From Chiloscyllium plagiosum (Eukaryota), in NCBI RefSeq assembly GCF_004010195.1, contig NC_057718.1, forward strand, positions 94,026,039-94,090,038: a DNA stretch of 64,000 nucleotides, in the 5' to 3' direction. Under the pieces are notes generated by a model that was not told the origin of the DNA, did no database searches, and worked only from the letters and a program-made list of their open reading frames with translations. Positions 1,966-59,361 of the stretch are shown here, piece after piece (positions within the stretch are counted from its first letter, which is position 1; every line of letters begins with the position of its first letter). The position numbers were made by a program, and so were the translations under genes.

Positions 1966-2765
1966 GAACAATAATAACAAGCAACAAGTGCTTCAATTCA
2001 AAGAGGAAACATAAAGATCTGATCTTTTAAATAATCAAGAAATATAAAATGAAATTATGCTCCTGGAGCATTGAAAATTGTTATGCCAGCATTCACGCAT
2101 TCTTGCAATGTAATTTGCAGTGAGCCAAATACCTTTCCTGCAATATCATTACAACAAAATTTACACACAATTCTCCAATGAAAGATCAATGAAAGTTCAG
2201 CAAGCAGATTTCACACAGACAGTAGATTTCTATTGAACAATTTACCAGAGGTTTGGACCTGTCTTCCACAGTTGCTTAGATCAATTGCTAATTTTAAATG
2301 TGGGACTGATAGATTTTTGTTAATGAAAGGTATTAAGGGACTTAGGGTGAAGACGGGAATATGGAATTGGGTCACAGATGAGCTTTGATCTCACTGAATG
2401 GCAGAATAAACTCAAGGGGCTACATGGTCTGCTCCTAATCCCACGTTCCTCAAATGATATGAAAACTCCAAAAGAGGTTATGTTGGAAGAAGAGTGCTCA
2501 GGCTGATCATACGTTTAGCTCACATCTTTGTCGTAATAAGTTGTGAAAGATCAAACCTACTGGAATATTTACTGTCGTTTTAACATTGCTAGTAGAAAAA
2601 TAGTGAAATATATCAGTGAATAAATTGCACAATGCTAATAAGTGAATTGAGAATCTATATAAAATGAACAAAGTCCCCACTTGCGAGGCAAACAATTATG
2701 TTTTACAGTGGTAATAGCTTCCATTGACTCTGGAGGTTCCACTGCCACTGTGTTATTCTGTTAGT

Positions 2766-3088
2766 GGGCGGCACGGTGGCACAGTGGTTAGCACTGCTGC
2801 CTCACAGCGCCAGAGACCCGGGTTCAATTCCCGCCTCAGGCGACTGACTGTGTGGAGTTTGCACGTTCTCCCCGTGTCTGCATGGGTTTCCTCCGGGTGC
2901 TCCGGTTTCCTCCCACAGTCCAAAGATGTGCAGGGTCAGGTGAATTGGCCATACTAAATTGCCCGTAGTGTTAGGTAAGGGGTAAATGTAGGGGTATGGG
3001 GTGGGTTTCGCTTCGGCGGGTCGGTGTGGACTTGTTGGGCCGAAGGGCCTGTTTCCACACTGTAATCTAATCTAATCTAAAAAAAAAA
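2766..3088 (+). mobile_element. HE1-type SINE, young full-length copy
   Basis: Starts GGGCGGCACGGTGGCACAGTGG, CpGs retained, (TAATC)n plus A tail. Near-identical to 4900-5207. Confidence 0.92.
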
Positions 3089-3395
3089 GCAGAGTAATGG
3101 GAGAGAAGAACAGAATGCCAGAAGCCAGCTGTTGGTGGAAACAGGATCCATAATAGGAAGGGGTTAAAGGGATATGGGCCAAGTGCTGGCTAATAGGACT
3201 AGGTTAATTTAGAATATCTGGTCAGCATGGACAAGTTGGACTGAAGGGTCTGTTTCAGTGCTGCAGACCTCTATGACTCTATGAAATGTTGATATTTTAC
3301 TCCTTCCCAGTGCACACACACTCAAGCTACCTATTTCGTTTGTTTGGAGGGAAAGCCTAGCTAATAATGACTCCACTTGACGATATCACAAATTG

Positions 3396-3546: not shown

Positions 3547-3916
3547 ATAGTTCCTTCGGCCCTCCCAGCCTCTGCTGCCATATTTTGCCCTTCTGTACTA
3601 AAACTTCTAAGAACTGAGAATAGGGTTTCCCAGCTCAAGCAATTGAGCTGTTTGTGCACACATATCTGTCTTATATACAGGCTTACTGACCATCTGCTGG
3701 CCAGCCATTGTGTGCATAGGAAGAGTCACACTCTAGTATTGTGCTCATATGAAAAGAGCAATTATACCAAGGCACTCAGATTTTCTTCTGATGTTAATTC
3801 TGACATTTTTTTTGCATGGTACTTGATTCATTAATATTCACAGGATCTCAGAAGTGTGATTGTTGTTTTGGTTCCAGATCATAGCGCTGCTCTTTCATTA
3901 GAGAAAGACAACTGGT

Positions 3917-3954
3917 GGTTCCTGAAGAAGGGCCTGTGCCCGAAACGTCGAATC
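3917..3954 (+). ncRNA. Minimal type I hammerhead ribozyme motif
   Basis: GGTTC-CTGAAGA-A-GGGC(CTGT)GCCC-GAAACGTC-GAATC. Predicted cleavage after C3949. Confidence 0.75.
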
Positions 3955-4037
3955 TCCTGTTCCCTGGATGCTGCCTGACCTGTTCCAGCAATAAAGTTTC
4001 AACTTTGATCTCCAGCATCTGCAGACCTCACTTTCTC
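3921..4037 (+). mobile_element. Single-arm PLE-derived hammerhead mini-element (family B)
   Basis: Near-identical to the element at 28810-29030, with tail ...GCAGACCTCACTTTCTCC. TSD CTGGTGGTT 3912-3920 / 4038-4046. Confidence 0.85.
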
Positions 4038-4182
4038 CTGGTGGTTACTATGCCTCAGGTAAAGGGAGAAGTTGAGAAGGAGAGTCCTTCATGGTAACCT
4101 CAGCTCATGATGGAATTGAACCTACACTGGTGGTATCACACTACTTTTCAAACCAATGGTTCAGCCAACTGAGCTAAACCGA

Positions 4183-4899: not shown

Positions 4900-5207
4900 G
4901 GCACGGTGGCACAGTGGTTAGCACTTCTGCCTCACAGCGCCAGAGACCCGGGTTCAATTCCCGCCTCAGGTGACTGACTGTGTGGAGTTTGCACGTTCTC
5001 CCCGTGTCTGTGCGGGTTTCCTCCGGGTGCTCCAGTTTCCTCCCACCATCCAAAGCTGTGCAGGGTCAGGTGAATTGGCCATGCTAAATTGCCTGTACTG
5101 TTAGGTAAGGGGTAAATGTAGGGGTATTGCGTGGGTTTCGCTTCGGCGGGTCGGTGTGGACTTGTTGGGCCGAAGGGCCTGTTTCCACACTGTAATCTAA
5201 TCTAAAA
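4900..5207 (+). mobile_element. HE1-type SINE
   Basis: A/B boxes, HE1 body, TAATCTAATCT tail. Confidence 0.9.
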
Positions 5208-5356: not shown

Positions 5357-5569
5357 CAAATAAAAACCGAAAGAGCTGCAAATCAGAAACAAAAACCAGA
5401 AATTGCTGGAAAAGCTCAGCAGGTCTGCAAGAGTTAACACTTTGGGCCCAGTGACTTTTTCTCAGTTCTGAAGGAGGGTCACCAGATCCGAAACATTAAC
5501 TCTGATTTCTCTTCACAGATGCTGCCAGACCTGCTGAGCTTTTCCAGCAAATTCTGTTTTTGCTGTGGT
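5357..5569 (-). mobile_element. PLE-derived hammerhead fold-back element (family C) inside a CR1 3' tail
   Basis: Arms CAGAAATTGCTGGAAAAGCTCAGCAGGTCTG / CAGACCTGCTGAGCTTTTCCAGCAAATTCTG. Degenerate hammerhead at 5464-5503. TSD TCATGGCTGATC 5345-5356 / TCACGGCTGATC 5570-5581. Confidence 0.75.
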
Positions 5570-5705: not shown

Positions 5706-7617
5706 GTCATAGAGTCATAGAGATGTACAGCACGGAAACAGACCCTTCGGTCCAACCCGTCCATGCCGACCAGATATCCCAATCCAATCTAGTCCCACCT
5801 GCCAGCACCTGGCCCATATCCCTCCAAATCCTTCCTATTCATATACCCATCCAAATGCCTCTTAAATGTTGCAATTGTACCAGCCTTCACCACTTCCTTT
5901 GGCAGCTCATTCCATACACGTACCACCCTCTGCATGAAAAAGTTGTCCGTTAGGTCTCTTTTATATCTTTCCCCTCTCACCCTAAACCTATGCCCTATAG
6001 TTCTGGACTCCCACACCCCAGGGAAAAGACTTTGCCTATTTATCCTATCCATGCCCCTCATAATTTTGTAAACCTCTATAAGGTCACCCCTCAGCCTCTG
6101 ACGCTCCAGGGAAAACAGCCCCTGCCTGTTCAGCCTCTCTCTATAGCTCAAACTCTCCAACCCTGGCAACACCCTTGTAAATCTTTTCTGAACACTTTCA
6201 AGTTTCACAACAGCTTTCCGATTGGAAGGAGATCAGAATTGCACGCAATATTGCAACAGTGGTCTAACCAATGTCCTGTACAGCCGCAACATGACCTCCC
6301 AANNNNNNNNNNNNNNNNNNNNNNNNNNNNNNNNNNNNNNNNNNNNNNNNNNNNNNNNNNNNNNNNNNNNNNNNNNNNNNNNNNNNNNNNNNNNNNNNNN
6401 NNNNNNNNNNNNNNNNNNNNNNNNNNNNNNNNNNNNNNNNNNNNNNNNNNNNNNNNNNNNNNNNNNNNNNNNNNNNNNNNNNNNNNNNNNNNNNNNNNNN
6501 NNNNNNNNNNNNNNNNNNNNNNNNNNNNNNNNNNNNNNNNNNNNNNNNNNNNNNNNNNNNNNNNNNNNNNNNNNNNNNNNNNNNNNNNNNNNNNNNNNNN
6601 NNNNNNNNNNNNNNNNNNNNNNNNNNNNNNNNNNNNNNNNNNNNNNNNNNNNNNNNNNNNNNNNNNNNNNNNNNNNNNNNNNNNNNNNNNNNNNNNNNNN
6701 NNNNNNNNNNNNNNNNNNNNNNNNNNNNNNNNNNNNNNNNNNNNNNNNNNNNNNNNNNNNNNNNNNNNNNNNNNNNNNNNNNNNNNNNNNNNNNNNNNNN
6801 NNNNNNNNNNNNNNNNNNNNNNNNNNNNNNNNNNNNNNNNNNNNNNNNNNNNNNNNNNNNNNNNNNNNNNNNNNNNNNNNNNNNNNNNNNNNNNNNNNNN
6901 NNNNNNNNNNNNNNNNNNNNNNNNNNNNNNNNNNNNNNNNNNNNNNNNNNNNNNNNNNNNNNNNNNNNNNNNNNNNNNNNNNNNNNNNNNNNNNNNNNNN
7001 NNNNNNNNNNNNNNNNNNNNNNNNNNTCCAGCACTTCCTCCTCTGTAATCTGGACATTTTGCAAGATGTCACCATCAATTTCCTTTCTGTCTATATCTTC
7101 CATATCCTTTTCCACAGTAAATACTGATGCAAAATATTCATTTAGTATCACCTCCATTTTCTGTGGCTCCACAAAGGCCGCCTTTCTGATCTTTGAGGGG
7201 CCCTATTCTCTCCCTAGTTACCCTTTTGTCCTCAATATATTTGTAAAAACCCTTTGGATTCTCCTTAATTCTGTTTGCCAAAGCTATCTCATGTCCCCTT
7301 TTCCCCTCCTGTTTTCCCTCTTAAGTATACTCCTACTTCCTTTGTACTCTTCTAAGGATTCACTCGATCTATCCTGTCTATACCTGACATATGCTTCCTT
7401 CTTTTTCTTAACCAAATACTCAATTTCTTTAGTCAGCCAGCATTCTCTATACCTACCAGCCTTTCCTTTCTCCCTGACAGAAATATACTTTCTCTGGATT
7501 CTTGTTATCTCATTTTTGAAGGCTTCTCATTTTCTAGCCGTCCCTTTACCTGCGAACATCTGCCTCCAATCAGCTTTCAAAAGTTCTTGCCTAATACCGT
7601 CAAAATTGGCCTTTCTC
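5706..7617 (-). mobile_element. CR1 LINE (ORF2 remnant) spanning an assembly gap
   Basis: Peptides LNEYFASVFT, EVMLRLYRTLVRP and LESVQKRFTRVLPGL...WNELP, with a (CTATGACT)n tail at 5706-5720. Confidence 0.9.
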
Positions 7618-16963: not shown

Positions 16964-17095
16964 AAACTAAAACAAAGACCTGCAGATGGCGGAGATCTGA
17001 AACTAAAACAGAAATTGCTGGAGAAACACAACAGGTCTGGCAAGATCTGTGAGAAGAGAGTTAACATTTCAAGTCCAGTGACTCTTCGCCAGAAT
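16964..17095 (-). mobile_element. Single-arm PLE-hammerhead element (family C), decayed
   Basis: CTGCAGATGGCGGAGATCTGAAAC...GAGTTAACATTTC...TCTTCGCCAGAA matches the family C arm plus tail. Confidence 0.65.
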
Positions 17096-22240: not shown

Positions 22241-23236
22241 TGACTTCACCCAGCATGCTCTTACTGAATGAAGTCTCCCCCACACACAGGTTTCCTGACA
22301 GTCATCTTTTAAAATAATTGCTAGAATTTGTGAATAAATGCTGCAGAGAGGGCCAATGGCTCAGTACAATGTTTGCTTTAAAGAGACCCTACAGTCACAT
22401 TGTTGAATTGGTCATCTATGTTAGACAGGCTAATTTCAGTCTGTGTGGTTACAGAAACACTGCATTTGTTTCAAATCCATTAACAAGGCAAAAGAAATAT
22501 CCTACGATGTGTTCCTGTTCATGATCGGCATCCTGAAACAACTCATGGAAAGTTTGTTTGTGAATTCAGACAAATGGATCAGAGTAATGCCAAGTGGTCT
22601 TAATCTTAATTTTTCAAATGGGTACTACTTGAGCCCAAAGATGAAATATGGTCATTTGGAGGAGGTTACTGGTACCTGGAACAATATCCCCTCATGAGTC
22701 ATTATCCCAGCAACAAGTAATATTTATATAGCAGTTTTTAATGTAATTAAACTTCCCAAATGCTTCCTAGGAACATGACAACTCAAAATCTAGCACAGAG
22801 CCACATGAGGAAATGATAAGCCAGGTGGCCACGCGTTGCCGAAAGGGTAGATTTTTAGGAGTGTCCTAAACAAGAAATGTGAGGTAGATAGGCATTGAGG
22901 TAGAGTCAAGGTATTTTCAAAGCATCAGATCTAGCAAACTGAAGGCAAATCCTCAGAGTGAATCACACTGCATGGAGAAATGTTGAATTCTGTTGCACTT
23001 TCTGCAATTTTTCAATGGGATGTTTTGCCCTTGGGTTATATACTGAAAATGGAATGTATATGTTGAATATCAACTGTATTAAGGAATTTCAGAGGGGAAT
23101 GTATTTTATGGGGAGAGGTTTTAATTTTGTTGCAACTTCTATAATTTGCAACTCAAAATATTTTGTCATCTACTTTTACAGATTTTATGAGAAAGGTATA
23201 TTTTCAGAGAAAAGATGGTAGAGCTGATATAATGAG

Positions 23237-23812
23237 TTAAAAAATCACACAACACCAGGTTATAGTCCAACAGGTTTATTTGAAAGCACTAGTTTTCGGA
23301 GCGCTGCTCCTTCATCATGTGGTTGTGGACCATAAGATCGTAAGACACAGAATTTATGACAAAAGTGTACAGTGTGATGGAACTGAAATTATATATTGAA
23401 AAAGACCTGGATTGTGTGATAAGTCTTTAAGAACCATGTTGGTTTCAGTTCTTTCATCTCAGAATGTTTTTTAAAGTTACATTCTCAGATGAACTTTAAC
23501 AATAGGTGCCATGTTGGTCTAGATAATGCATTGAAGGTGTGAGGTGCACTGTGTGAGACTGTCTGTGCCCAATGTTCAGACCGATTCTAATCTAAAAAAG
23601 GGAGTTCCAGAATCTTACCTGGCTTTATGCAGTTTATGAGCAAAATAAAATGTAATCCTGCAAGTACAAATTCACCCCACAAACTTATATGTGCGTGCGT
23701 GCATGTGGGTGGGTGTGTGTATGTGTGGGAGGGTATGAGTGTCTGTGAGAGAGTGTGTGTTTGTGTGAGTGTGACTGTAAAGGAGTATAAGTCTGTTGGC
23801 GAGTGTGTGTCT
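23237..23812 (-). mobile_element. Penelope-like element 3' region (family A), single arm
   Basis: Homologous to the 42844-43336 arm. Mutated hammerhead at 23287-23321, (GT)n-rich end, possible TSD TATAATGAG/TATAATTAG. Confidence 0.8.
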
Positions 23813-28809: not shown

Positions 28810-29030
28810 GGAGAAAGTGAGGTCTGCAGATGCTGGAGATCAAAGTTGAAACTTTATTGCTGGAACAGCACAGCAGGTCAGGCAGCATCCAGGGAACAGG
28901 AGATTCGACGTTTCGGGCACAGGCCCTTCTTCAGGATTCCTGAAGAAGGGCCTGTGCCCGAAACGTCGAATCTCCTGTTCCCTGGATGCTGCCTGACCTG
29001 CTGTGCTGTTCCAGCAATAAAGTTTCAACC
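28810..29030 (-). mobile_element. PLE-derived perfect palindromic double-hammerhead element (family B)
   Basis: 92-bp perfect arms 28845-28936 / 28938-29029, 35-bp unpaired tail 28810-28844, TSD TAAATAGACAAGGT 28796-28809 / 29031-29044. Confidence 0.92.
28935..28972 (+). ncRNA. Minimal type I hammerhead ribozyme motif (mirror copy on the minus strand at 28902-28939)
   Basis: Stem I GATTC/GAATC, core CTGAAGA, extra A, stem II GGGC/GCCC, GAA-ACGT-C. GUC cleavage triplet ends at 28967. Confidence 0.8.
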
Positions 29031-38320: not shown

Positions 38321-38645
38321 GGTGGACATGGTGGCTCAGTGGTTAGCACTGCTGCCTCACAGCGCCAGAAACCTGGGTTCAATTCCAGCCTCGGGCGACT
38401 GTCTGTGTGGAGTTTGCACATTCTCCCTTTGTCTGCATGGGTGTCCTACAGGCACTCTGGTTTCCTTCCACAATGTAAAGATGTGCATGTCAGGTGAATT
38501 GGCCATGCTAAATTGCTCATAGTGTTAGGTACATTAGTCAGAGGTAAATGTAGGGGAATGGGTCTGGGTGGGTTACTCTACGGAGGGTTGGTATGGACTT
38601 GTTGGGCCGAAAGGCCTGTTTCCATACTGTAGGGAATCTAATTTA
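38321..38645 (+). mobile_element. HE1-type SINE
   Basis: A/B boxes, HE1 body, GGGAATCTAAT tail. Confidence 0.88.
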
Positions 38646-38917
38646 ATAATATGATACATTGGAAGCGGGAAAAATATGGGGAATGTAGGAAGAAACCAAG
38701 GGGGAAGATTGCTTAGCCACTATTGATGGAATGGAAGGACACACAACCGGACAAGAGTAGGATGAATGGAGGTTCCTGGTTGTTTAAATGGTTAAAGGAG
38801 ATTGCAGATATCAAATGGATGAGATTCTTCTGAGAAAGGATTTATAACTGTGGATGTTAATGTTAAAATTGATGCACTGGATGGCTGAGGGTCAGTGAGC
38901 ACTGACAAAAACAAGTT

Positions 38918-39024
38918 ATAAACAAAAACAGAAATTGCTGGAAAATCTCAGCAGGTCTGGCACCACCTGTGGAGAGTAATCAGAGTTAACTTTTCGGGGT
39001 TGAGTGACCCTTCCTCAGAACTGA
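38918..39024 (-). mobile_element. Single-arm PLE-hammerhead element (family C)
   Basis: Minus strand reads AGTT-CTGAGGA-A-GGGTCACTCAACCCC-GAAAAGTT-AACT. Confidence 0.75.
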
Positions 39025-40464: not shown

Positions 40465-41265
40465 GAATTTGATTTGATTTGTTTTACTATTGTCACATGT
40501 ACCCAGGTACAGTGAAAACTTTCATTTTGCGTGCAGTGCAAACAGATAGTAACATTCAAAGTGCATTGGAGTAATAGAACAGAGTGAGGAATACAATGTT
40601 AGGGCTGCAGAGAAGATGCACAGACAGTGACATCAACAACACATTATAATTTGAGAGGTCAATTCAGAAGTCTAATAACAGCGAGGAAGAAGATGTTCTT
40701 GAGCCTGTTGGTACGTATGTTTAGATGTGTCTTCAGCCCAATGAAAGAGGGTGGAAGAAATTATAATCGCATTGGGAGGGGTCTTTGATGATGTTGACTG
40801 CCTTCCAAAGGCAGTAAGAACTATAGATGGAGTCAATGGATGGAACGTTGGCTTGCGTCATGGACTGGGCTGTGTTCACAACTCTCTGTAAGCTCTTCCT
40901 GTCCTGGGCAGAGCAGTTTCTATACTGAACCCGGATGTATTTGAATAGAATGCTTTCTATAGTACATTTATTAAAACTGATAGGAGTCTTTACAGATATG
41001 CCAAATTTCCTTAGCCTCCTGAGGAAGTAGAGGCATTGATGTGCTTTCATGACCATCACATCAATTTGGGTAGACCAGGAGAGATTGTTGGTGATCATCA
41101 CTCCCAGGAACTCCTCACTCTCGATCATCTCCACCTTAGCATCATTGCTGTAGACAGCAGTGTGCACTGCACCTTGCTTCCTGAAGTCAATGGCTAATTC
41201 TTTCATTTTGCTCATGTTAAGGGAGAGATTCTTTATAACACACCATCAAACACACTATCTCTTTC
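40465..41265 (-). mobile_element. Rex1/Babar-like LINE 3' part
   Basis: ORF 40733-41215 (KELAIDFRK...LYFLRRLRKFG) with an (AAATC)n tail. Confidence 0.82.
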
Positions 41266-42843: not shown

Positions 42844-43942
42844 AAAAAAAAATCACACAACACCTGGTTAAAGTCCAACAGGATTAATTGGAAGCACTAG
42901 CTTTCGGAGCACCGCTCCTTCATCAGGTGGTTGTGGAGGACACAATTGTAAGGCACAGAATTTATAGCAAAAGTTTACAGTGTGATGTAACTGAAATTAT
43001 ACATTTCATCTGTTCAAATACCATGATAGTTTCATTTCTTTCATGTGTAAATCACAAAACCTTTTTTTAAAAAGTTGCATTCTCAGGTTAACTGTAACAA
43101 TGGGTGTTAGTTAGACAATATGTTGAAGGTGTTAGCCCTCTGTGTTCTTTGTTTGTGCCATGATGTTTAGATTGATTCTAATCTAGAAAGTGAGTTTTAT
43201 GTGAATTCATGCAGTTTTTGAGCAAAGTACAATGTAACTCTGCAAGTACAAATTCACCCCACAAACATATATGTATATGTGTGAATGTGGGTCTTTGTGT
43301 GTGTGTGTGTGTAGGAGTGTCTGTGTGTGTGTAGTGCAGACTTAAGACACTCTACATTCACTACACACACATATACACTCTCTCTCACACTCACAACCCT
43401 CCAACCCAGACACAAAGACCCACATGCACACATATACATATATGTTTGTGGGGTGAATTTGTACTTGCAGAGTTACATTATACTTTGCTCAAAAGCTACA
43501 TGAATTCATGTAAAACTGTTATCTCACTTTTTAGATTAGAATCAATCTAAACATCATGGTACAGACAGAGAACACAGGGGGTTAACACCTTCAACATATT
43601 GTCTAGCTATCACCAATTGTTACAGTTAACTTGAGAATGCAACTTTTTTTTAAAAAAGTTTTGTGATTTACACATGAAAGAAGTGAAACTATCATGGTAT
43701 TCGAACAGATGAAAGACTCAACAGACAATCAAGGTATTTTTCAATGTATAATTTCAGTTACATCACACTGTAAACTTTTGCTATAAATTCTGTGCCTTAC
43801 AATTGTGTCCTCCACAACCACCTGATGAAGGAGCGGTGCTCCGAAAGCTAGTGCTTCCAATTAAACCTGTTGGACTATAACCTGGTGTTGTGTGATTTTT
43901 AACTTTCGTACACCCCAGTCCAACACCAGCATCTCCAAATCA
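42844..43942 (+). mobile_element. 1.1-kb Penelope-like fold-back (family A) with a hammerhead in each arm
   Basis: Arms ~42844-43336 / 43360-43906, 36-nt tail 43907-43942, TSD TCATTACAGAAAGT 42830-42843 / 43943-43956. Confidence 0.9.
43816..43856 (+). ncRNA. Minimal type I hammerhead ribozyme motif (mirror copy on the minus strand at 42895-42929)
   Basis: CAC-CTGATGA-A-GGAGC(GGT)GCTCC-GAA-AGCT-A-GTG. CUA triplet ends at 43850. Confidence 0.8.
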
Positions 43943-43956
43943 TCATTACAGAAAGT

Positions 43957-44335
43957 TATGAACACAGCCCAGACCATCACAGTTGCTGCAGAAAGGCTGC
44001 CAACATCATCAAAGAACCCTCCCACTCCAGTAATACTTTCTTCCAGCCTCTCCCATCAGGCAGAAGATACGGAAGCTTGAATACACGGACCAACATTTTC
44101 AAGAACAGCTTCTTCTCTGCTGTTATTAAACTGCTGAATGGACCTCTCTAATTTCAATTTAATATTGACCTTGCTTTTGTGCATCTCCTGTGCAGCTGTA
44201 ACCATGTATGCCTCACTCTGTCTAAGCACCCTTTGATCTGTTTGTCCTTGTATGTTATTAACAGTCTGTACTGCTTACAAAACAAAACTTTTTACTGCAC
44301 TTAGGTACATGTGACAGCAATAAATCAAATCAAAC
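43957..44335 (+). mobile_element. Rex1/Babar-like LINE 3' end
   Basis: LQKVMNTAQTIT matches the 40733-41215 peptide. CAATAAATCAAATCAAA tail. Confidence 0.78.
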
Positions 44336-47382: not shown

Positions 47383-47648
47383 AACTGTGGGATTGTAGGG
47401 GTGAGCTCTGGATTGGGTTTGAAGGTGGCAGGATGGTCACCTGACCCATTTACACACAAATCCTGGCATGTAATATCCAGGTAGTGAACTAAAATCTGGA
47501 TAAACATCCCAAAAAACTTCTTCCAATGTGTCTTATAAGCCCACATCAACACATGATGTCAACAGCAAATTTCATTGAAAGCTGCGCATTAGGGCTGTTG
47601 TAATGCAATGGTAGTATCCCAGCCTCTATGCCAGGCAACCCAAGTTCA

Positions 47649-47788
47649 GAGTTCTGAGGAACGGTCACTCGACCTGAAATGTTAACTCTGATTTCTCTTC
47701 ACAGGTGCTGCCAGACCCGCTGAACTTGCTCAGCAATTTCTGTTTTCATTTCCAATATACAGCATCCGTAGTTCAGTCAGTTTCTATT
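47649..47788 (+). mobile_element. Single-arm PLE-hammerhead element (family C) inserted in the B box of a short tRNA SINE (47592-47860)
   Basis: GAGTT-CTGAGGA-A-CGGTC(ACTC)GACCT-GAAATGTT-AACTC. TSD CAACC(C/G)AAGTTCA 47636-47648 / 47789-47801. Confidence 0.8.
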
Positions 47789-48876: not shown

Positions 48877-49116
48877 GCTGAAAATGTGTTGCTGGAAAAG
48901 CGCAGCAGGTCAGGCAGCATCCAGGGAACAGGAGAATCGACGTTTCGGGCATAAGTCCTTCTTCAGGAATGAGGAAAGTGTGCCCTGATTCCTGAAGAAG
49001 GGCTTATGCCCGAAACGTCGATTCTCCTGTTCCCTGGATGCTGCCTGACCTGCTGCGCTTTTCCAGCAACACATTTTCAGCTCTGACCTCCAGCATCTGC
49101 AGACCTCACTTTCTCC
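48877..49116 (+). mobile_element. PLE-derived double-hammerhead fold-back element (family B)
   Basis: 94-bp arms 48877-48970 / 48988-49081 (1 mismatch), 17-bp spacer, 35-bp tail, TSD (CC)TCTTAAGTCCCATT 48861-48876 / 49115-49130. Confidence 0.92.
48987..49024 (+). ncRNA. Minimal type I hammerhead ribozyme motif
   Basis: GATTC-CTGAAGA-A-GGGC(TTAT)GCCC-GAAACGTC-GATTC. Confidence 0.75.
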
Positions 49117-52790: not shown

Positions 52791-53974
52791 CTGGAGTGCT
52801 AGAGTCTTCAGTGGAGTATTTAAATCAGATTTCCAAAGTTTGAAAAGGTGCCATATCTTGGCCACTTCTCCACAGTGGTTAAACTGTGTCTCCTGAAATG
52901 AGATTGCATTGCCTTACGACCTGTTTCATTTAGACGTCAGTTTGAGATGGATCTTCCGAGTAAAGAGACAGGCGTTATGGGTCTCAGAAACCTCCCTGAC
53001 AGTTCAGCGGGAAGAGATGAGTGTGAGCTAGGATCTCCTGTTCCAAAGCAGTTCAAGAGCACTTCAGCAGAAATTGCTGAGGTTGTGAAACCCCAAGAAT
53101 GCCGCCTCCTAACCCATCCAGAATGGAACTGTCCATTGAGGGGGGCACGGCAGCTGATTGGTCAAAGTAGCACACTTGATCTGTTAAGCTGGTGCAGGTC
53201 TTTAAAGCTCACAGCAACATGCAAACTCCCATGTAAAACCAGGAGAACAGTGTGCTCCTGTCCCTAACAATTGTTTTCTACACAAAGAAACCACTCTTTT
53301 ATTCAAGTGATGTTGGAGTCAGAAATATGCAAATGCAGGTCCAATGGATTCTATTGGTATAGTGTCAAACCTCTGGTCAGGTTTCTGAATTAGGAAAATT
53401 ATGTCATTGAATTGAATCACAAATCAGTGTTTGGAGTTTATTTGATGTGGGATTGCACACTTTACAATATGTCATAAATCAGATTTTCATTAAATTTCAG
53501 TTTGTCTTAGTCTGTAGCCCCACCCAATTTCTGAGTTGGATGTTGTGAAATTAAGGCCTATGTTGGACTTGGATAGGTACCTTTCTCAGGCTCCTTGAGT
53601 GAAGCATTTTGAAGAGGTCATCTTTTGGATGGACAAAGGATCCTGTTTGTCAGCACAAAAGCATTGAAAAGATCTCATCCCACTTTTTGAACACGGGCAA
53701 TGAGTTGCTCCAAACAACTCTCCTTCTTCTGATAACACTATCAAAAACATGTATCCTGTCACTTATTCTTCTGCTGCCTTGAAAGTGAAGCCTGATCGTG
53801 TACAGATTGATGACAGTATTTAGCTCTATACAAGCAATAAGGACAGCTAGAAAAATAATCTATTAATTTGAAAGTCCTGAGGATATGATAAAGCCCTATA
53901 TAAACACAAAATATTCCCCTCAAGTAACTTTACTATGATTTTAGTACTTTATGACAAAAGCTACTATTCTGATA

Positions 53975-54517
53975 TAGAGTCATAGAGATGTACAGCATGG
54001 AAACAGACCCTTCGGTCCAACCCATCCATGCCGACCAGATATCCCATCCCTATCTAGTCCCACCTGCCAGCACCTGGCCCATATCCCTCCAAACCCTTCC
54101 TATTCATATACCCATCCAAATGTCTCTTAAATGTTGCTGTTCTACCAGCCTCCACCGCATCCTCTGGCAGTTCATTCCACACCCATATCACCCTCTGTGT
54201 GAAAAAGTTGCCTGTTAGGGACCTTTTAAATCTTGCCCCTCTCACCCTAAACCTATGCCATATAGTTCTGGACTCCCCAACCCCAGGGAAAAGACTTTGC
54301 CTATTTACCCTATCCATGCCCCTCATAATTTTGTAAACCTCTATAAGGTCACCCCTCAGCCTCCAATGCTCCAGGGAAAACAGCCCCAGCCTGTTCAGCC
54401 TCTCCCTATAGCTCAAATCCTCCAACCCTGGCAACATCCTTGTAAATCTTTTCTGAACCCTTTCAAGTTTCACAACATCTTTCCGATAGGAAGGTGACCA
54501 GAATTGCATGCAATATT
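53975..54517 (-). mobile_element. Young CR1 3' fragment
   Basis: Open ORF 54054-54509 (QFWSPSYRKDVVKLERVQKRFTRMLPGL). Confidence 0.92.
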
Positions 54518-55160
54518 ATCTTTAAAAAGGACTATGAACCAAGAGTTACAAAGTGGGCTTGAATAATAAACTGAATGGTCTCCTTTAGTATCAGAAACGT
54601 TTCATATTTTATGTAAATGGTTAGATACAGGAATTACCATAACCAGATTAACAGTCTCTCTGTTTCAAGACATATCACTTTACCAATGTGTATACGTATG
54701 CATGCATGTATATGTGTATAAATGTATCTACCTGCTTATCTTTATCTGTCTGTCTGCCTACCTATTGCTCTGATTCTAGTTAGTTAGCAGCCTATGCTGT
54801 GAAGGCTCTGCCACTGTTAGATTGGGCATAAAGACCAAGGTGAGGCAGCTAAAGCTTGGGCATGGTTAATGTGGAAAAAAGCAGAGAGATCGGATGTGAA
54901 GAGGCTATGCAGAGATTTGAGGATAAGGACAGGATTCCAAGGATGGCAGGACTGATGTGCAAAGGAGACTGGATTGGTTAGGAATATAGTCACTGGAGGT
55001 TAGAAGAATGAAGTGGTGCATTTTGGCAAGACAAATGTGGGCAGGACTTATATAATTAATGGTTGGACCCTGGGGAGTGTTGTTGAACAGAGAGATCTAG
55101 GAGTTCAGATATATAGCTTTTTGAAGGTTATGTCAGAGGTAGACAGGGTTATAAAGAAGG

Positions 55161-55381
55161 CTGAAGACAACGAGTGCTGGAGATCCCAGAAGATCAGGCA
55201 GCATTCGTGCAGGGAGAGCAAGCTAACGTTTCAAGACTGGATGATTCTTCATCAGAGTCATCTAGACTCGAAATGTTAGCTTGCTCTTTCTTCATGGATG
55301 CGGTCTGACTGCTGTGATCTCCAGCACTTGTTGTTTTCAGAATAGATTCCAGCTCCTACATAGTAATTTGCTCCTACATAG
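55161..55381 (+). mobile_element. PLE-derived hammerhead fold-back element (family D)
   Basis: Arms CTGAAGACAACGAGTGCTGGAGATC / GATCTCCAGCACTTGTTGTTTTCAG. Minus-strand CTGATGA-A...GAAACGTT-AGC, stem II GAGTC/GACTC, TSD TAAAGAAGG 55152-55160 / 55382-55390. Confidence 0.8.
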
Positions 55382-56109
55382 TAAAGAAGGGGTTTGGCAC
55401 ACCTGCCTATATTGGTCAGTATAGGAGTTGGGACGTCTGTGACGCCACTTTTGTAGCCTGGTCACCCAGCTATGGGAAGAATATTATTAAATTGGAGAGG
55501 GTGCAGGAAAGATTTATGAGGATGTTTCTGGGACTGGAGAGTTTGAGTTATTGGGACAGGCTGGATAGATTGGGAAGCTTTTCGTCAGAGCACAGGAGGT
55601 TGAGGGATGACCTTTTCGAGGTCTATAAAATCATGAGGGACTAATATAATTTGAATAGCAAAGGCCTTTTCCCTAGGGTAAGGGCTTTCGAAACTAGAGG
55701 GCATATTTTTAAGGTGAGAGGAGAAAGATATAACGAGGACCTGGGGGGCAACATTTTCACTCAGAGAGTGGTGTGTGTGCGGAATGAACTACTAGAGGAT
55801 GTGGTAGAGGCAGGTACAGTTACAACATTTAAAAATTATTTGGACAGGGATGAATAGAAAAGGTCTATAGGGATATGGGGCAAATCCAAGTAAAGGGACT
55901 AGTTGAGTTGGGAAACTTGGTCAGCATGGACAACTTGGACTGAAGGGCCTGTTTCCATGCTGTATGATTCTATAACTCTATGTGTGAGAACCTCATAGAA
56001 TTCTAACAGTGCTAGACAGGGAAAACACAAGAAGGGTATTCTCCATGACTAGGAGACTCCAGAATTTAGGGTGACAGTCTAAGGATATAAAGTAGGTTTT
56101 TCATGTCTG

Positions 56110-56440
56110 ATTAGATTAGATTCCCTACAGTTTGGAAACAGGGCCTTCAGCCCAACAAGTCCACATCGACCCTCCGAAGAATAACCCACCCAGACCCATT
56201 CTCCTACCCTATATTTACCCCTGCCTAATGCACCTAATACTTTGGCAATTTAGCATGGCCAATTCACCTGGCCTACACATCTTTGGATTGTGGGAGTAAA
56301 CCAGAGCACTCAGAGAAATTCCACACAGACACGAGGAGAATGTGCAAACCCCGCATTGGCAGTCGCCCAAGGCAGGAATTGAACCCAGGTCCTTGGCACT
56401 GTGAGGTAGCAGTGCTGACCACTGAGCCACTGTGCCGCCC
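56110..56440 (-). mobile_element. HE1-type SINE
   Basis: TTAGATTAGATT tail and CTGTGCCGCCC head (reverse complement). Confidence 0.88.
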
Positions 56441-57537
56441 CAAAGATGAAGAGATGACGAGAAATGCCTTCACCCAAAGAGCGGTGAGCTTGTGGAAGTT
56501 TCTGCCGCAGGAAGCATTGAGGCCAAAACTTTAAATATTTTCAAGAAATTAGATACAGTTCTCAAGGCTAAAGGGATCAAAACAGGGTGTGACGGATCAT
56601 ATTGAATGCAGAACAGGCTCAAAGGGCCTATTCCTATTTTCTATGTTTCTATAATAAATGGAGAAATGGAAATAACTGGTGTCCAGACTTCTTGGGGGAG
56701 AGTTTGTGGGTAATTGTGTTTTGGACCAGTTACAGTTAACGTAAGATGGAGAATAGGAGACAAGTGAGGGGCAAACTGGAGAAATTCTGCTCATCAGCCC
56801 TTGCTCCAGAATTGTGCTAAAGTGGGGAAGTAGATGGACAATGTCGCAGAGATAAAGGCAAGCAATCCTACATGAGGAATTACATTTGGGATTTGGAGCT
56901 CAGCTAAGAGTTGAACAACCTGATTTAACCCAAGTGAATGGACAAGGAGGAGGCTGAATTGGATGACAAGTGAAAGGACACTGTAGTGGAAAAATCTCCA
57001 CAGCATGACATCTCATTTTTGGATCAATATTTGTTACCACTGACGAACCGAAACCAGTGTGATCCAAATGATCCTTTTGGCAGTATCACCGTACAAAATG
57101 AGCATGTTATTTTGATGCCTAACAACAAGCTGGTAATATTGCAAACTTATCTCTGCATTTCTGTATAGGGTAATGGGTAAAATAAAGTGCCATGTGAATA
57201 AATTATATTAACGTGCAGCTCAGAAAATATCAGGTGGATTCTGTTCATGTTTACCCAGTCCCCAAGTCAGGAAATTGCAATGCATTATAACCTTGAGAAA
57301 TGGAGATGGTTGAACAAGTCTATATCCCGGACTGAATCAACCACAAACTGGTATTCCTAGTTTCTGGAACTCTTCTTCCAGTGTTAAATTTTCCAGGGGT
57401 CTCAAGCACATGTGTGCTCCAAGAAGCTGATGATGGGCTTGCACCAGGACTACTTTCAGTTCTGAGGATCTCAGAAGGCAACACATGTGTGAGGTTTAAC
57501 ACTTTTTGTGGAACCTTAAGGTTTAAAGTCTTCTCAC

Positions 57538-57850
57538 AGTCATGGAGTCATAGGGTCATGCAGCACGGAAACAGACCCTTCGGTCCAACCAGTTGTACCT
57601 GACCAAAAACCCAGACAATACTAGTCCTACCTGCCTGCTCCTGGCCAATAGCCCTCCAAACCTTTCCTATCCATGTACTTATCCAAATGTCTTTTAAACG
57701 TTAAAATCACACAACAGCAGGTTATAGTCTAACAGGTTTAATTGGAAGCACTAGCTTTTGGAGCACTGCTCCTTCATTTTAAACGCTGTAATTGTACCCA
57801 CATGCACCACTTCCTCAGGAAGTTCATTCCATACACAAACCACCCTCTGT
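57538..57850 (-). mobile_element. CR1 3' tail
   Basis: AGTCATAGGGTCATGCAGCACGGAAACAGACCC...TCATTCCATAC. Confidence 0.82.
57701..57776 (-). mobile_element. 76-bp single-arm PLE (family A) ending inside the hammerhead core
   Basis: TTAAAATCACACAAC...GCTCCTTCA. TSD TTTTAAACG 57692-57700 / 57777-57785. Confidence 0.85.
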
Positions 57851-58977: not shown

Positions 58978-59282
58978 TTAGATTAGATTAGATTACTTAC
59001 AGCGTGGAAACAGGCCCTTCGGCCCAACAAGTCCACACCGACCCTCCGAAGAGCAACCCACCCAGACCCATTGCCCTACATTTACCCCTTCACCAAACAC
59101 TACGAACAATTTAGCATGGCCAATTCACCGAACATGCACATTTTTGGACTGTGGGAGGAAACCCACGCAGACACAGGGAGAACGTGAAAACTCCACACAG
59201 ACAGTTGCCTGAGGCAGGAATTGAACCCGGGTCTCTGGCACTGTGAGGCAGCAGTGCTAACCACTGTGCCACCATGCCACCC
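58978..59282 (-). mobile_element. HE1-type SINE
   Basis: (GATTA)n tail and A/B boxes in reverse complement. Confidence 0.9.
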
Positions 59283-59361
59283 AAATTTCTCCAATTTCTA
59301 ATAAAGACCGTTGACGGTTTACCTTAATTCCCTTATTTTTCCACTTAATACTAGGAAGGAC

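Follow-up and report, generated by a model that had tools for sequence, protein, structure and literature searches.

Abundant minimal hammerhead motifs linked to Penelope-like retroelements in the genome of Chiloscyllium plagiosum

The hammerhead motif at the locus

We examined a stretch of 64,000 nucleotides (nt) from Chiloscyllium plagiosum (contig NC_057718.1, positions 94,026,039 to 94,090,038), referred to here as the window, which contains a hammerhead motif of the family that we call A at 43816-43856 on the plus strand. The motif, here named copy A1, is very probably a minimal type-I hammerhead (min-HHR) located about 90 to 120 nt before the 3' end of a Penelope-like element (PLE), which is a known class. 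A preliminary description of this DNA had placed a hammerhead at this site, and both conserved boxes, an extra A, paired stems and a palindrome were all read there. Stem I consists of 3 base pairs (bp) between CAC at 43819-43821 on the 5' strand and GUG at 43851-43853 on the 3' strand. The boxes are CUGAUGA (43822-43828) and GAA (43843-43845), with the extra A at 43829, and they enclose a 5-bp stem II of GGAGC (43830-43834) and GCUCC (43838-43842) with the loop GGU. Helix III is replaced by the palindrome AGCU (43846-43849), which is followed by A17 at 43850, and the cut is predicted to fall between 43850 and 43851.

The A1 motif is situated near the outer end of the right arm (43337-43943, plus strand) of an inverted pair of 5'-truncated family A PLE copies. 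The arm is 3' non-coding sequence, and other genomic copies diverged from it at 43904-43906 or at 43943, as seen from the loose ends of contigs. The left arm (42847-43332, minus strand) holds a second hammerhead, A2, with its core at 42896-42926, and the stretch between the boxes of A2 was identical to that of A1.

A two-box regular expression matched 15 places in the window, of which 11 were assigned as copies of families A to D. Three belonged to family A, at 43822 (plus), 42926 (minus) and 39135 (minus), and 5 to family B, at 3922 (plus), 28940 (plus), 28934 (minus), 48992 (plus) and 48966 (minus). Family C contributed 2 copies, at 47654 (plus) and 39018 (minus), and family D a single copy at 55255 (minus). 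The core boxes CUGANGA and GAAA (43843-43846 in A1) and a non-G at position 17 were present in A1 and likewise in the 11 window copies; the boxes were required by the scans themselves, so that copies lacking a box went uncounted. In the chance control, 12 core matches were counted in the real window, 7 of which had a stem II of at least 4 bp and a stem I of at least 2 bp, and 6 of these 7 also had a palindromic tetramer. The window read backwards gave 0, 0 and 0 for core, stems and palindrome, respectively, and the means of 100 first-order Markov simulations were 0.89 cores, 0.01 with stems and 0 with palindrome.

Carrier elements, families and covariation

At locus L009, elsewhere in the genome, two direct family A hammerheads 2.5 kb apart flank a broken open reading frame (ORF) with reverse transcriptase (RT) motifs. 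A genome search with the C-terminal part of this ORF gave 39,937 first-look candidates and 137 scored matches with 70% to 88% identity, the query's own place being excluded. Eleven further loci (L018 to L028) were returned from the RT query, and a family A hammerhead was located about 1.0 to 1.1 kb downstream of the RT match on the same strand in 8 of them (L018, L019, L021 to L024, L027 and L028), and about 0.7 kb downstream in L025. No family A hammerhead was found downstream of the RT match in L020 and L026. Very long open frames in L030 and L031 were rejected as they were runs of N. It was also noted that the family A copy between the direct hammerheads of L009 (3048-5415, minus strand) is internally deleted, lacking about 0.9 kb, including the endonuclease domain, relative to other copies.

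Family A was found about 0.5 kb downstream of an ORF that encodes a reverse transcriptase and a GIY-YIG endonuclease. RVT_1 matched the ORFs of family A elements with E values of 6e-8 and 1e-8, and the stretch between the RT match and the hammerhead encodes a CCHC motif followed by a GIY-YIG-like domain in the seven loci that were translated as they stand. A Pfam search did not detect the GIY-YIG-type domain directly in the translated segments, and a six-frame genome search with the Pfam GIY-YIG model gave a single scored match among 14,403 first-look candidates, the PLE endonuclease being too distant from the model. The GIY-YIG-like stretch aligned with an E value of 1e-14 to residues 903-1066 of homologue P0004, in which Pfam places GIY-YIG at residues 980-1065. 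The nearest proteins were unnamed turtle and frog products and metagenome ORFs with 32% to 47% identity, which carry RVT_1 and GIY-YIG.

A tblastn search with four homologues identified fragments of the reverse transcriptase and endonuclease (EN) upstream, on the same strand, of hammerheads of 3 further families: B' (L048, about 380 bp), E (L049, about 485 bp) and F (L047, about 280 bp). Upstream of family B proper we identified only a motif of the ORF end, at a distance of about 220 bp (L063). No PLE coding linkage was seen for families C and D in the loci examined, and their tails resemble the family B tail. The location of family A, and likewise of families B', E and F, downstream of RT and GIY-YIG coding sequence identifies these motifs as the minimal hammerheads of PLEs. 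Two direct family B copies 3.8 kb apart in L063 were considered as flanks of a PLE and rejected, since fragments of a long interspersed nuclear element (LINE) lie between them. These LINE-type reverse transcriptase fragments (358-672 and 2596-3234, both minus strand) are unrelated neighbours of the two family B stubs.

The abundance of the motifs was estimated from pattern searches of the genome (3.56 Gb, 101,977 contigs) on both strands. The exact pattern of family A, with the loop left free, matched 14,834 times (7,467 and 7,367 on the two strands) and that of family B 61,357 times (30,677 and 30,680), with 0 matches in the backwards control of each. A generic pattern, which fixes only the boxes, G10.1, C11.1, U16.1 and a non-G at 10.2, gave 41,210 matches versus 570 in the backwards control and exposed families B', D, E and F. 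Stem II is GAGC/GCUC in family B' in the matches to the generic pattern, GUCACC/GGGGAC in family E and GUUACC/GGUGAC in family F. The palindrome was AGCU in 44 of 45 family A copies, and ACGU or CpG-decayed forms of it in families B, C, D, E and F. Stem I comprises 3 bp in family A, with a minority of copies having 6 bp (AACCAC/GUGGUU).

The B lineage contained an abundant GAGC/GCCC subfamily with an A.C mismatch at 10.2-11.2 (L033, L034, L041, L058 and L062) as well as a compensated GAGC/GCUC subfamily (L040, L048 and L061), which look like an intermediate and its repair, both of them amplified. Furthermore, family E kept an A.G mismatch, or G.G in a subfamily, at the fourth pair of a stem II of 6 to 7 bp in all 11 copies (loci L035 to L039, L049, L050, L052 to L054, L057 and L060), and this may be a tolerated or a functional non-canonical pair.

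To compare the stems between families, every two-box copy of the window and 59 other loci (265 kb) was parsed, a non-random sample as the loci were drawn from pattern searches. Families were assigned by our own regular expressions on the tail after the cut, independently of stem II. Among 101 core matches, 95 fell into families (A 45, B1 3, B2 23, C 4, D 2, E 11 and F 7), and the other 6 were set aside as chance matches or unassignable. Taking the commonest pair in each family, pair 10.1-11.1 was G-C in A, B, B', D, E and F, and G-C or CpG-decayed G.U in C. Pair 10.2-11.2 was G-C in A, B and C, A-U in B' and D, and U-A in E and F, while pair 10.3-11.3 was A-U in A, G-C in B, B', C and D, C-G in E and U.G in F. 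Pair 10.4-11.4 was G-C in A, C-G in B and B', U-A in C and D (for D as listed with the generic pattern) and A-U in F, with the A.G or G.G mismatch in E. In stem I, which has no entry for B', pair 2.1-1.1 was C-G in A and B, U-A in C and D and A-U in E and F, and pair 2.2-1.2 was A-U in A, U-A in B and C and C-G in D, E and F. Thus, G10.1-C11.1, which was fixed beforehand in the family A and generic search patterns, is kept, and the other stem pairs covary between the families of this genome.

Over seven stem positions in the 95 copies of the 7 families, bases paired with their own partners in 590 of 665 cells, as compared to 206 of 665 with the partner slid by one position and 340 of 665 with the partner slid by two. 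When the 5' strands were combined with the 3' strands of another family, the average pairing was 0.47 versus 0.83 within families, and 2 of 5,040 family permutations reached the observed pairing sum. A second count was taken from a MAFFT alignment of 36 sequences of families B to F, with six pairs kept in register and family A left out. Positions 3 to 5 of stem II were not brought into register by MAFFT across all families, and these remaining positions rest on our own parse. In the alignment, 79.6% of the cells were paired versus 55.5 +/- 2.3% after shuffling, and the covariation score was 0.621 versus 0.232, with 0 of 500 shuffles reaching the observed value in either case. Slid partners paired in 19% to 47%, and changes on both sides were seen in 5 of the 6 pairs. 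Departures from pairing within families were mainly one-sided decay. Since most copies of any one family are dead and related by descent, the number of independent events is about seven, one for each lineage, rather than 95. Selection on the fold is supported by these sequence comparisons, in that, from one family to the next, both strands of stems I and II differ around a fixed core.

The preliminary description had likewise proposed selection on the fold, and the two-sided stem changes across seven families bear this out; several of the particulars on which it drew needed revision. That stem II differs in sequence and yet remains paired in families A to D was correct at the level of families, but the GAGTC/GACTC quoted for family D had been taken from a plus-strand copy (55255-55270) without a CUGANGA box on its strand. 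The complete family D core in the window, on the minus strand at 55223-55255, has only 2 stem II pairs, whereas intact family D copies elsewhere in the genome do have GAGUC/GACUC. Stem I was said to change in step with stem II and does covary between families, although it is short in family A and, in the commoner B subfamily, is reduced to 2 bp, a U.U mismatch and 1 bp. The extra A claimed for all four families followed CUGANGA in 11 of 11 window copies, and the base between A9 and G10.1 was A in 76 of 77 copies of families A to D (C in the other one), but U in all 18 copies of families E and F. The self-complementary tetramer AGCT or ACGT was said to be unable to close a hairpin, which agrees with the spacing of A15.1 and U16.1, but its CpG has been lost in both family C copies of the window (AUGU and AAGU for ACGU), one of which also has C.U at 10.1-11.1.

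Twin stubs, transcripts and the cleavage question

BLAST searches with pieces consisting of hammerhead and tail added decayed or truncated copies, at 714-873, 5464-5560, 17005-17094, 23235-23328, 55254-55340 and 57703-57777, to those matched by the regular expression in the window. Besides the two arms, family A is represented by a decayed copy with AGUU for AGCU and C17 (39105-39135, minus), by an older copy of about one arm length (23235-23795, minus; 73% to 76% identity to the arms at 42847-43904), of which 23235-23328 is the hammerhead and tail part, and by a stub that starts 3 nt inside the hammerhead core (57703-57777, minus). A decayed, family A-like head-to-head pair was located at 714-873, with 714-800 on the minus strand and 814-873 on the plus strand. 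Family B formed two pairs of head-to-head twin stubs. The first (28810-29029) has hammerheads at 28905-28934 (minus) and 28940-28969 (plus) with 5 nt between the cores, stem II GGGC/GCCC, ACGU and C17, and the full stem I GAUUC/GAAUC in the plus copy only; the second (48879-49116) has hammerheads at 48937-48966 (minus) and 48992-49021 (plus) with 25 nt between the cores. A solo family B stub (3916-4039, plus) consists of a hammerhead at 3922-3951 and its tail.

The family C stub at 47646-47746 (plus) has a hammerhead at 47654-47685 with an 8-bp stem I, UCAGAGUU/AACUCUGA, stem II GGUC/GACC and the CpG-decayed AUGU. Three other family C stubs are decayed: one at 38925-39022 (minus) with its hammerhead at 38986-39018, one at 5464-5560 (plus) with the core CTGAAGG and one at 17005-17094 (minus) with a decayed core. 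Family D is present as a head-to-head pair (55150-55340), in which the minus copy has the full core with a decayed stem II, and the plus copy (55254-55340), cut short within the ribozyme, retains GAGUC/GACUC. A tblastn search with PLE RT/EN homologues detected no coding PLE fragment in the window. The window copies are 5'-truncated, non-coding PLE remnants, and many are head-to-head twin stubs that derive from single insertion events.

The window consists mostly of interspersed repeats. A repeat at 43980-44334 (plus), just past the family A arm and with a further copy at 40473-40891 (minus), is unrelated to the hammerhead element; read in frame, it resembles what we take to be the C-terminal end of a LINE-type ORF. 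A 300-bp repeat was present in at least 10 window copies at 70% to 95% identity (for example 2765-3080, 4900-5205, 38321-38647, 56106-56443 and 58978-59285), and a 500-bp repeat in several (for example 5709-6252 and 53974-54517).

To quantify the arrangement of the copies, we counted neighbouring cores within 2.5 kb of each other in the 265 kb of sequence, defining twins as copies with at most 1 base difference between the boxes. Twins made up 13 of 21 head-to-head pairs, 1 of 10 tail-to-tail pairs and 1 of 6 direct pairs (a family A pair 354 bp apart in L010), and the share of twins among random copy pairs was 9%. Two CTGATGAAGG cores were found head to head at 7,228 loci in the genome at a distance of 0 to 30 nt, as compared to 1,145 loci at 31 to 60 nt and 455 at 91 to 120 nt. 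The twin stub joins its partner a few bases 5' of the hammerhead core, as in the window examples 28934/28940, 48966/48992 and 55255/55254. The spacers differ between loci, so the twins mostly represent separate events. In PLEs, inverted 5'-truncated partner copies are a known trait, hammerheads near the 3' end have also been described and priming on both target strands by the protein of a lizard PLE has been shown in vitro; in the papers that we compared, we found no discussion of the marked tendency of copies to stop immediately past the ribozyme.

Family A is transcribed in the sense direction. In run X19 (poly(A) single-cell RNA, raw reads, of which about 2% was read), 3,809 reads matched 43337-44000 at a likeness of at least 88%, with a strand bias of 1,885 versus 352 in the bin 43843-43865 and a depth that climbed towards 43843-43888. 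An ATTAAA signal at 43860-43865 is followed by poly(A) addition sites after 43877 and 43880 (579 and 704 reads, respectively), and this strand bias, together with the poly(A) additions, indicates that polyadenylated sense transcripts exist. The poly(A) sites lie 27 to 30 nt past the predicted cut and 25 to 65 nt short of the ends of the genomic copies. Since genomic copies extend past the poly(A) site, to 43904-43906 or 43943, the polyadenylated RNA cannot be the whole template of inserted copies, and this extension recalls the "tail" extension described for PLEs. Loose letters in the X19 reads suggested an RNA start before 43809/43810, which was rejected because the letters match the upstream sequence of the main subfamily and reflect clipping. 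A second run, X20, gave 0 reads.

Turning to the working of the motif, A15.1 and U16.1 are separated by only 2 nt (GC or CG), so that a single copy cannot close helix III. By a geometric argument, two copies could form a 4-bp helix III with stem I swapped between the molecules. We propose that stems I and II would form around the conserved core in the element transcript, and that helix III would form only when the 4-nt palindromes (AGCU or ACGU) of two copies pair. The second copy could lie in a separate RNA or farther on in the same transcript, in which the ORF lies between two pseudo-long terminal repeats (pLTRs). The resulting double hammerhead would be domain-swapped and would cut after H17, which is A in family A, C in family B and U in families C and D. 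Cutting would probably be slow and helped by protein, and its role may be the processing of element RNA. Same-sense copy pairs on one transcript are mainly such pLTR-ORF-pLTR arrangements, close direct pairs are rare, and head-to-head pairs are unable to give a double hammerhead within one strand.

Cleavage, the dimer and a role are put forward here on the strength of published work on the same class. In Cervera and de la Pena (2014, PMC4209133), a single motif gave no detectable cleavage, and dimeric and trimeric constructs were weakly active; a review states the same dimer behaviour, citing Lunse et al. and Forster et al. A dimer requirement is plausible in that it would fit both the anatomy and the published assays, and we lean slightly towards the view that cleavage in vivo would need two copies. 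The reading as a whole, which joins the class of PLE min-HHRs with the proposed double-hammerhead working, we consider highly probable.

Several observations weigh against this reading. The Rfam hammerhead models gave 0 matches in the window at the gathering score, and no hammerhead family was found in 43700-43950 at E values up to 10. The covariation was affected by ascertainment, in that the pattern used for family A loci fixed both strands of stem II and GUG and the pattern used for the other loci fixed G10.1 and C11.1; moreover, the families were assigned by our own tail expressions, and family D comprised only 2 decayed copies. Stem I is very short and, in the commonest B subfamily, contains a mismatch; family E has its mismatch within stem II. 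ViennaRNA cofolding did not favour the double hammerhead, which in family A came to -17.7 kcal/mol, as compared to -19.6 for a pair of free monomers and -29.8 for a duplex with swapped stem II, and in family B to -23.5 versus -24.6; as nearest-neighbour cofolding ignores tertiary contacts, it counts neither for nor against the dimer. In X19, read starts or ends did not pile up at 43850/43851, and reads crossed the cut; as either product would hardly be captured in a poly(A)-primed library, this says little about cleavage. In the lizard PLE, insertion in vitro was reportedly unaffected by hammerhead mutants, the element's protein was required for cleavage and RNA-seq reads neither started nor ended at the cut site. 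Naiad PLEs are described as thriving without hammerheads.

An alternative is that the fold and the palindrome are kept for a job other than cutting, such as pairing two template RNAs or marking the template for a dimeric RT-endonuclease, with cutting being incidental. The concentration of head-to-head loci at 0 to 30 nt, which implies that copying very often ends just past the ribozyme, and the excess of twins among head-to-head neighbours would suit such a job, as would the published description of the lizard protein, a predicted dimer that cuts and extends both target strands and for which hammerhead cleavage was not needed for insertion in vitro. Against it, CUGANGA, GAAA, G10.1-C11.1 and the non-G at 17 are kept in all seven families, although the scans required the boxes, and would be needless for pairing alone; single C3G and G8C catalytic mutants of the lizard element were reported to leave insertion unchanged, and twins and inverted truncated copies are described as general in PLEs without hammerheads (Naiads). 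We regard this alternative as unlikely. A more specific proposal is that reverse transcription prefers the stub of 95 to 130 nt itself as its template, as an RNA whose 5' end is fixed a few bases before stem I. Two such RNAs would be held together by the palindrome and the swapped stem I, and a dimeric enzyme would copy one from each strand of the cut target and thereby produce the twins. If so, the minimal hammerhead would be mainly a device for pairing templates and cutting would be secondary, but we consider this quite improbable.

The copies could also be non-LTR retrozymes, in which type-I hammerheads are carried in short tandem repeats and circular RNAs are produced. The two are related, in that a 2026 preprint derives vertebrate retrozymes from PLE pLTRs (Li et al. 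2026), and one direct family A pair was seen, in L010. However, the window contains no tandem array, direct neighbours were outnumbered by head-to-head neighbours (6 versus 21 pairs) and included a single twin pair, a helix III stem is entirely absent from the copies here and family A is linked to a coding PLE, which makes this explanation very improbable. That boxes and stems arose by chance in a repeat family that encodes no ribozyme, to which the lack of an Rfam match and of cleavage in the X19 reads might point, has a negligible probability, as the counts far exceed the controls, stems have changed on both sides in seven families with different tails, a covariation that already contradicts chance, and the same class of motif is known from the PLEs of many animals.

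Comparison with known hammerhead systems

The preliminary description did not recognise that the motif belongs to the known minimal hammerheads of PLEs. Such min-HHRs were described in the flanking repeats (pseudo-LTRs) of animal PLEs by Cervera and de la Pena (2014), whose account includes the conserved G10.1-C11.1, a palindromic 15.2-16.2, pairs on opposite strands 100 to 700 bp apart and thousands of copies in coelacanth and Xenopus. Common to that class and the copies studied here are a type-I fold without a real helix III, the palindromic 15.x-16.x, one unpaired base between A9 and G10.1, and G10.1-C11.1. They also share several covarying families per genome, thousands of copies, opposite-strand pairs and a location in the 3' repeat of elements that encode RT and GIY-YIG. 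There is no difference in kind: stem II has 4 to 7 bp here and 7 to 8 bp in Schistosoma, stem I is as short as 2 to 3 bp here, and the copy numbers exceed those given in the same source, which are about 4,000 in coelacanth and about 9,000 in Xenopus. The particular families found here may not be among those listed in that source.

The finding carries little weight as a discovery and is useful as annotation. With at least 76,000 exact copies between them, the two families A and B alone reveal that PLE remnants form a very large population in an animal genome of 3.56 Gb. This population is possible material for the question of the role of the ribozyme, for which the poly(A) site 27 to 30 nt past the cut and the pile-up of twin junctions 5' of the ribozyme provide handles.

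More distant parallels can also be drawn. In newt satellite 2 and avocado sunblotch viroid (ASBVd), which form double hammerheads (Forster et al. 1988, as cited), helix III is likewise too weak in a single copy and two copies share an extended helix III. Their stem has 1 to 2 bp with a small loop, whereas only an A-U pair and two palindromic bases are present here, and the carrier here is a retrotransposon rather than a satellite or viroid. The plus-strand hammerhead of chrysanthemum chlorotic mottle viroid (CChMVd; De la Pena and Flores 2001, as cited) has an extra unpaired base at the 5' end of stem II in an otherwise standard core, but it belongs to a viroid, is of type III and has a normal helix III, whereas the extra base here is a family trait, A in families A to D and U in E and F. 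Animal non-LTR retrozymes (Cervera and de la Pena 2020; Li et al. 2026) have type-I hammerheads with a weak palindromic helix III and are non-autonomous relatives of PLE pLTRs, but they are head-to-tail tandem repeats that give circular RNAs, whereas the window contains dispersed stubs and head-to-head twins. The class, its covarying families, the extra base, the palindrome and the dimer model have all been in print since 2014, and the copies described here belong to this known kind.

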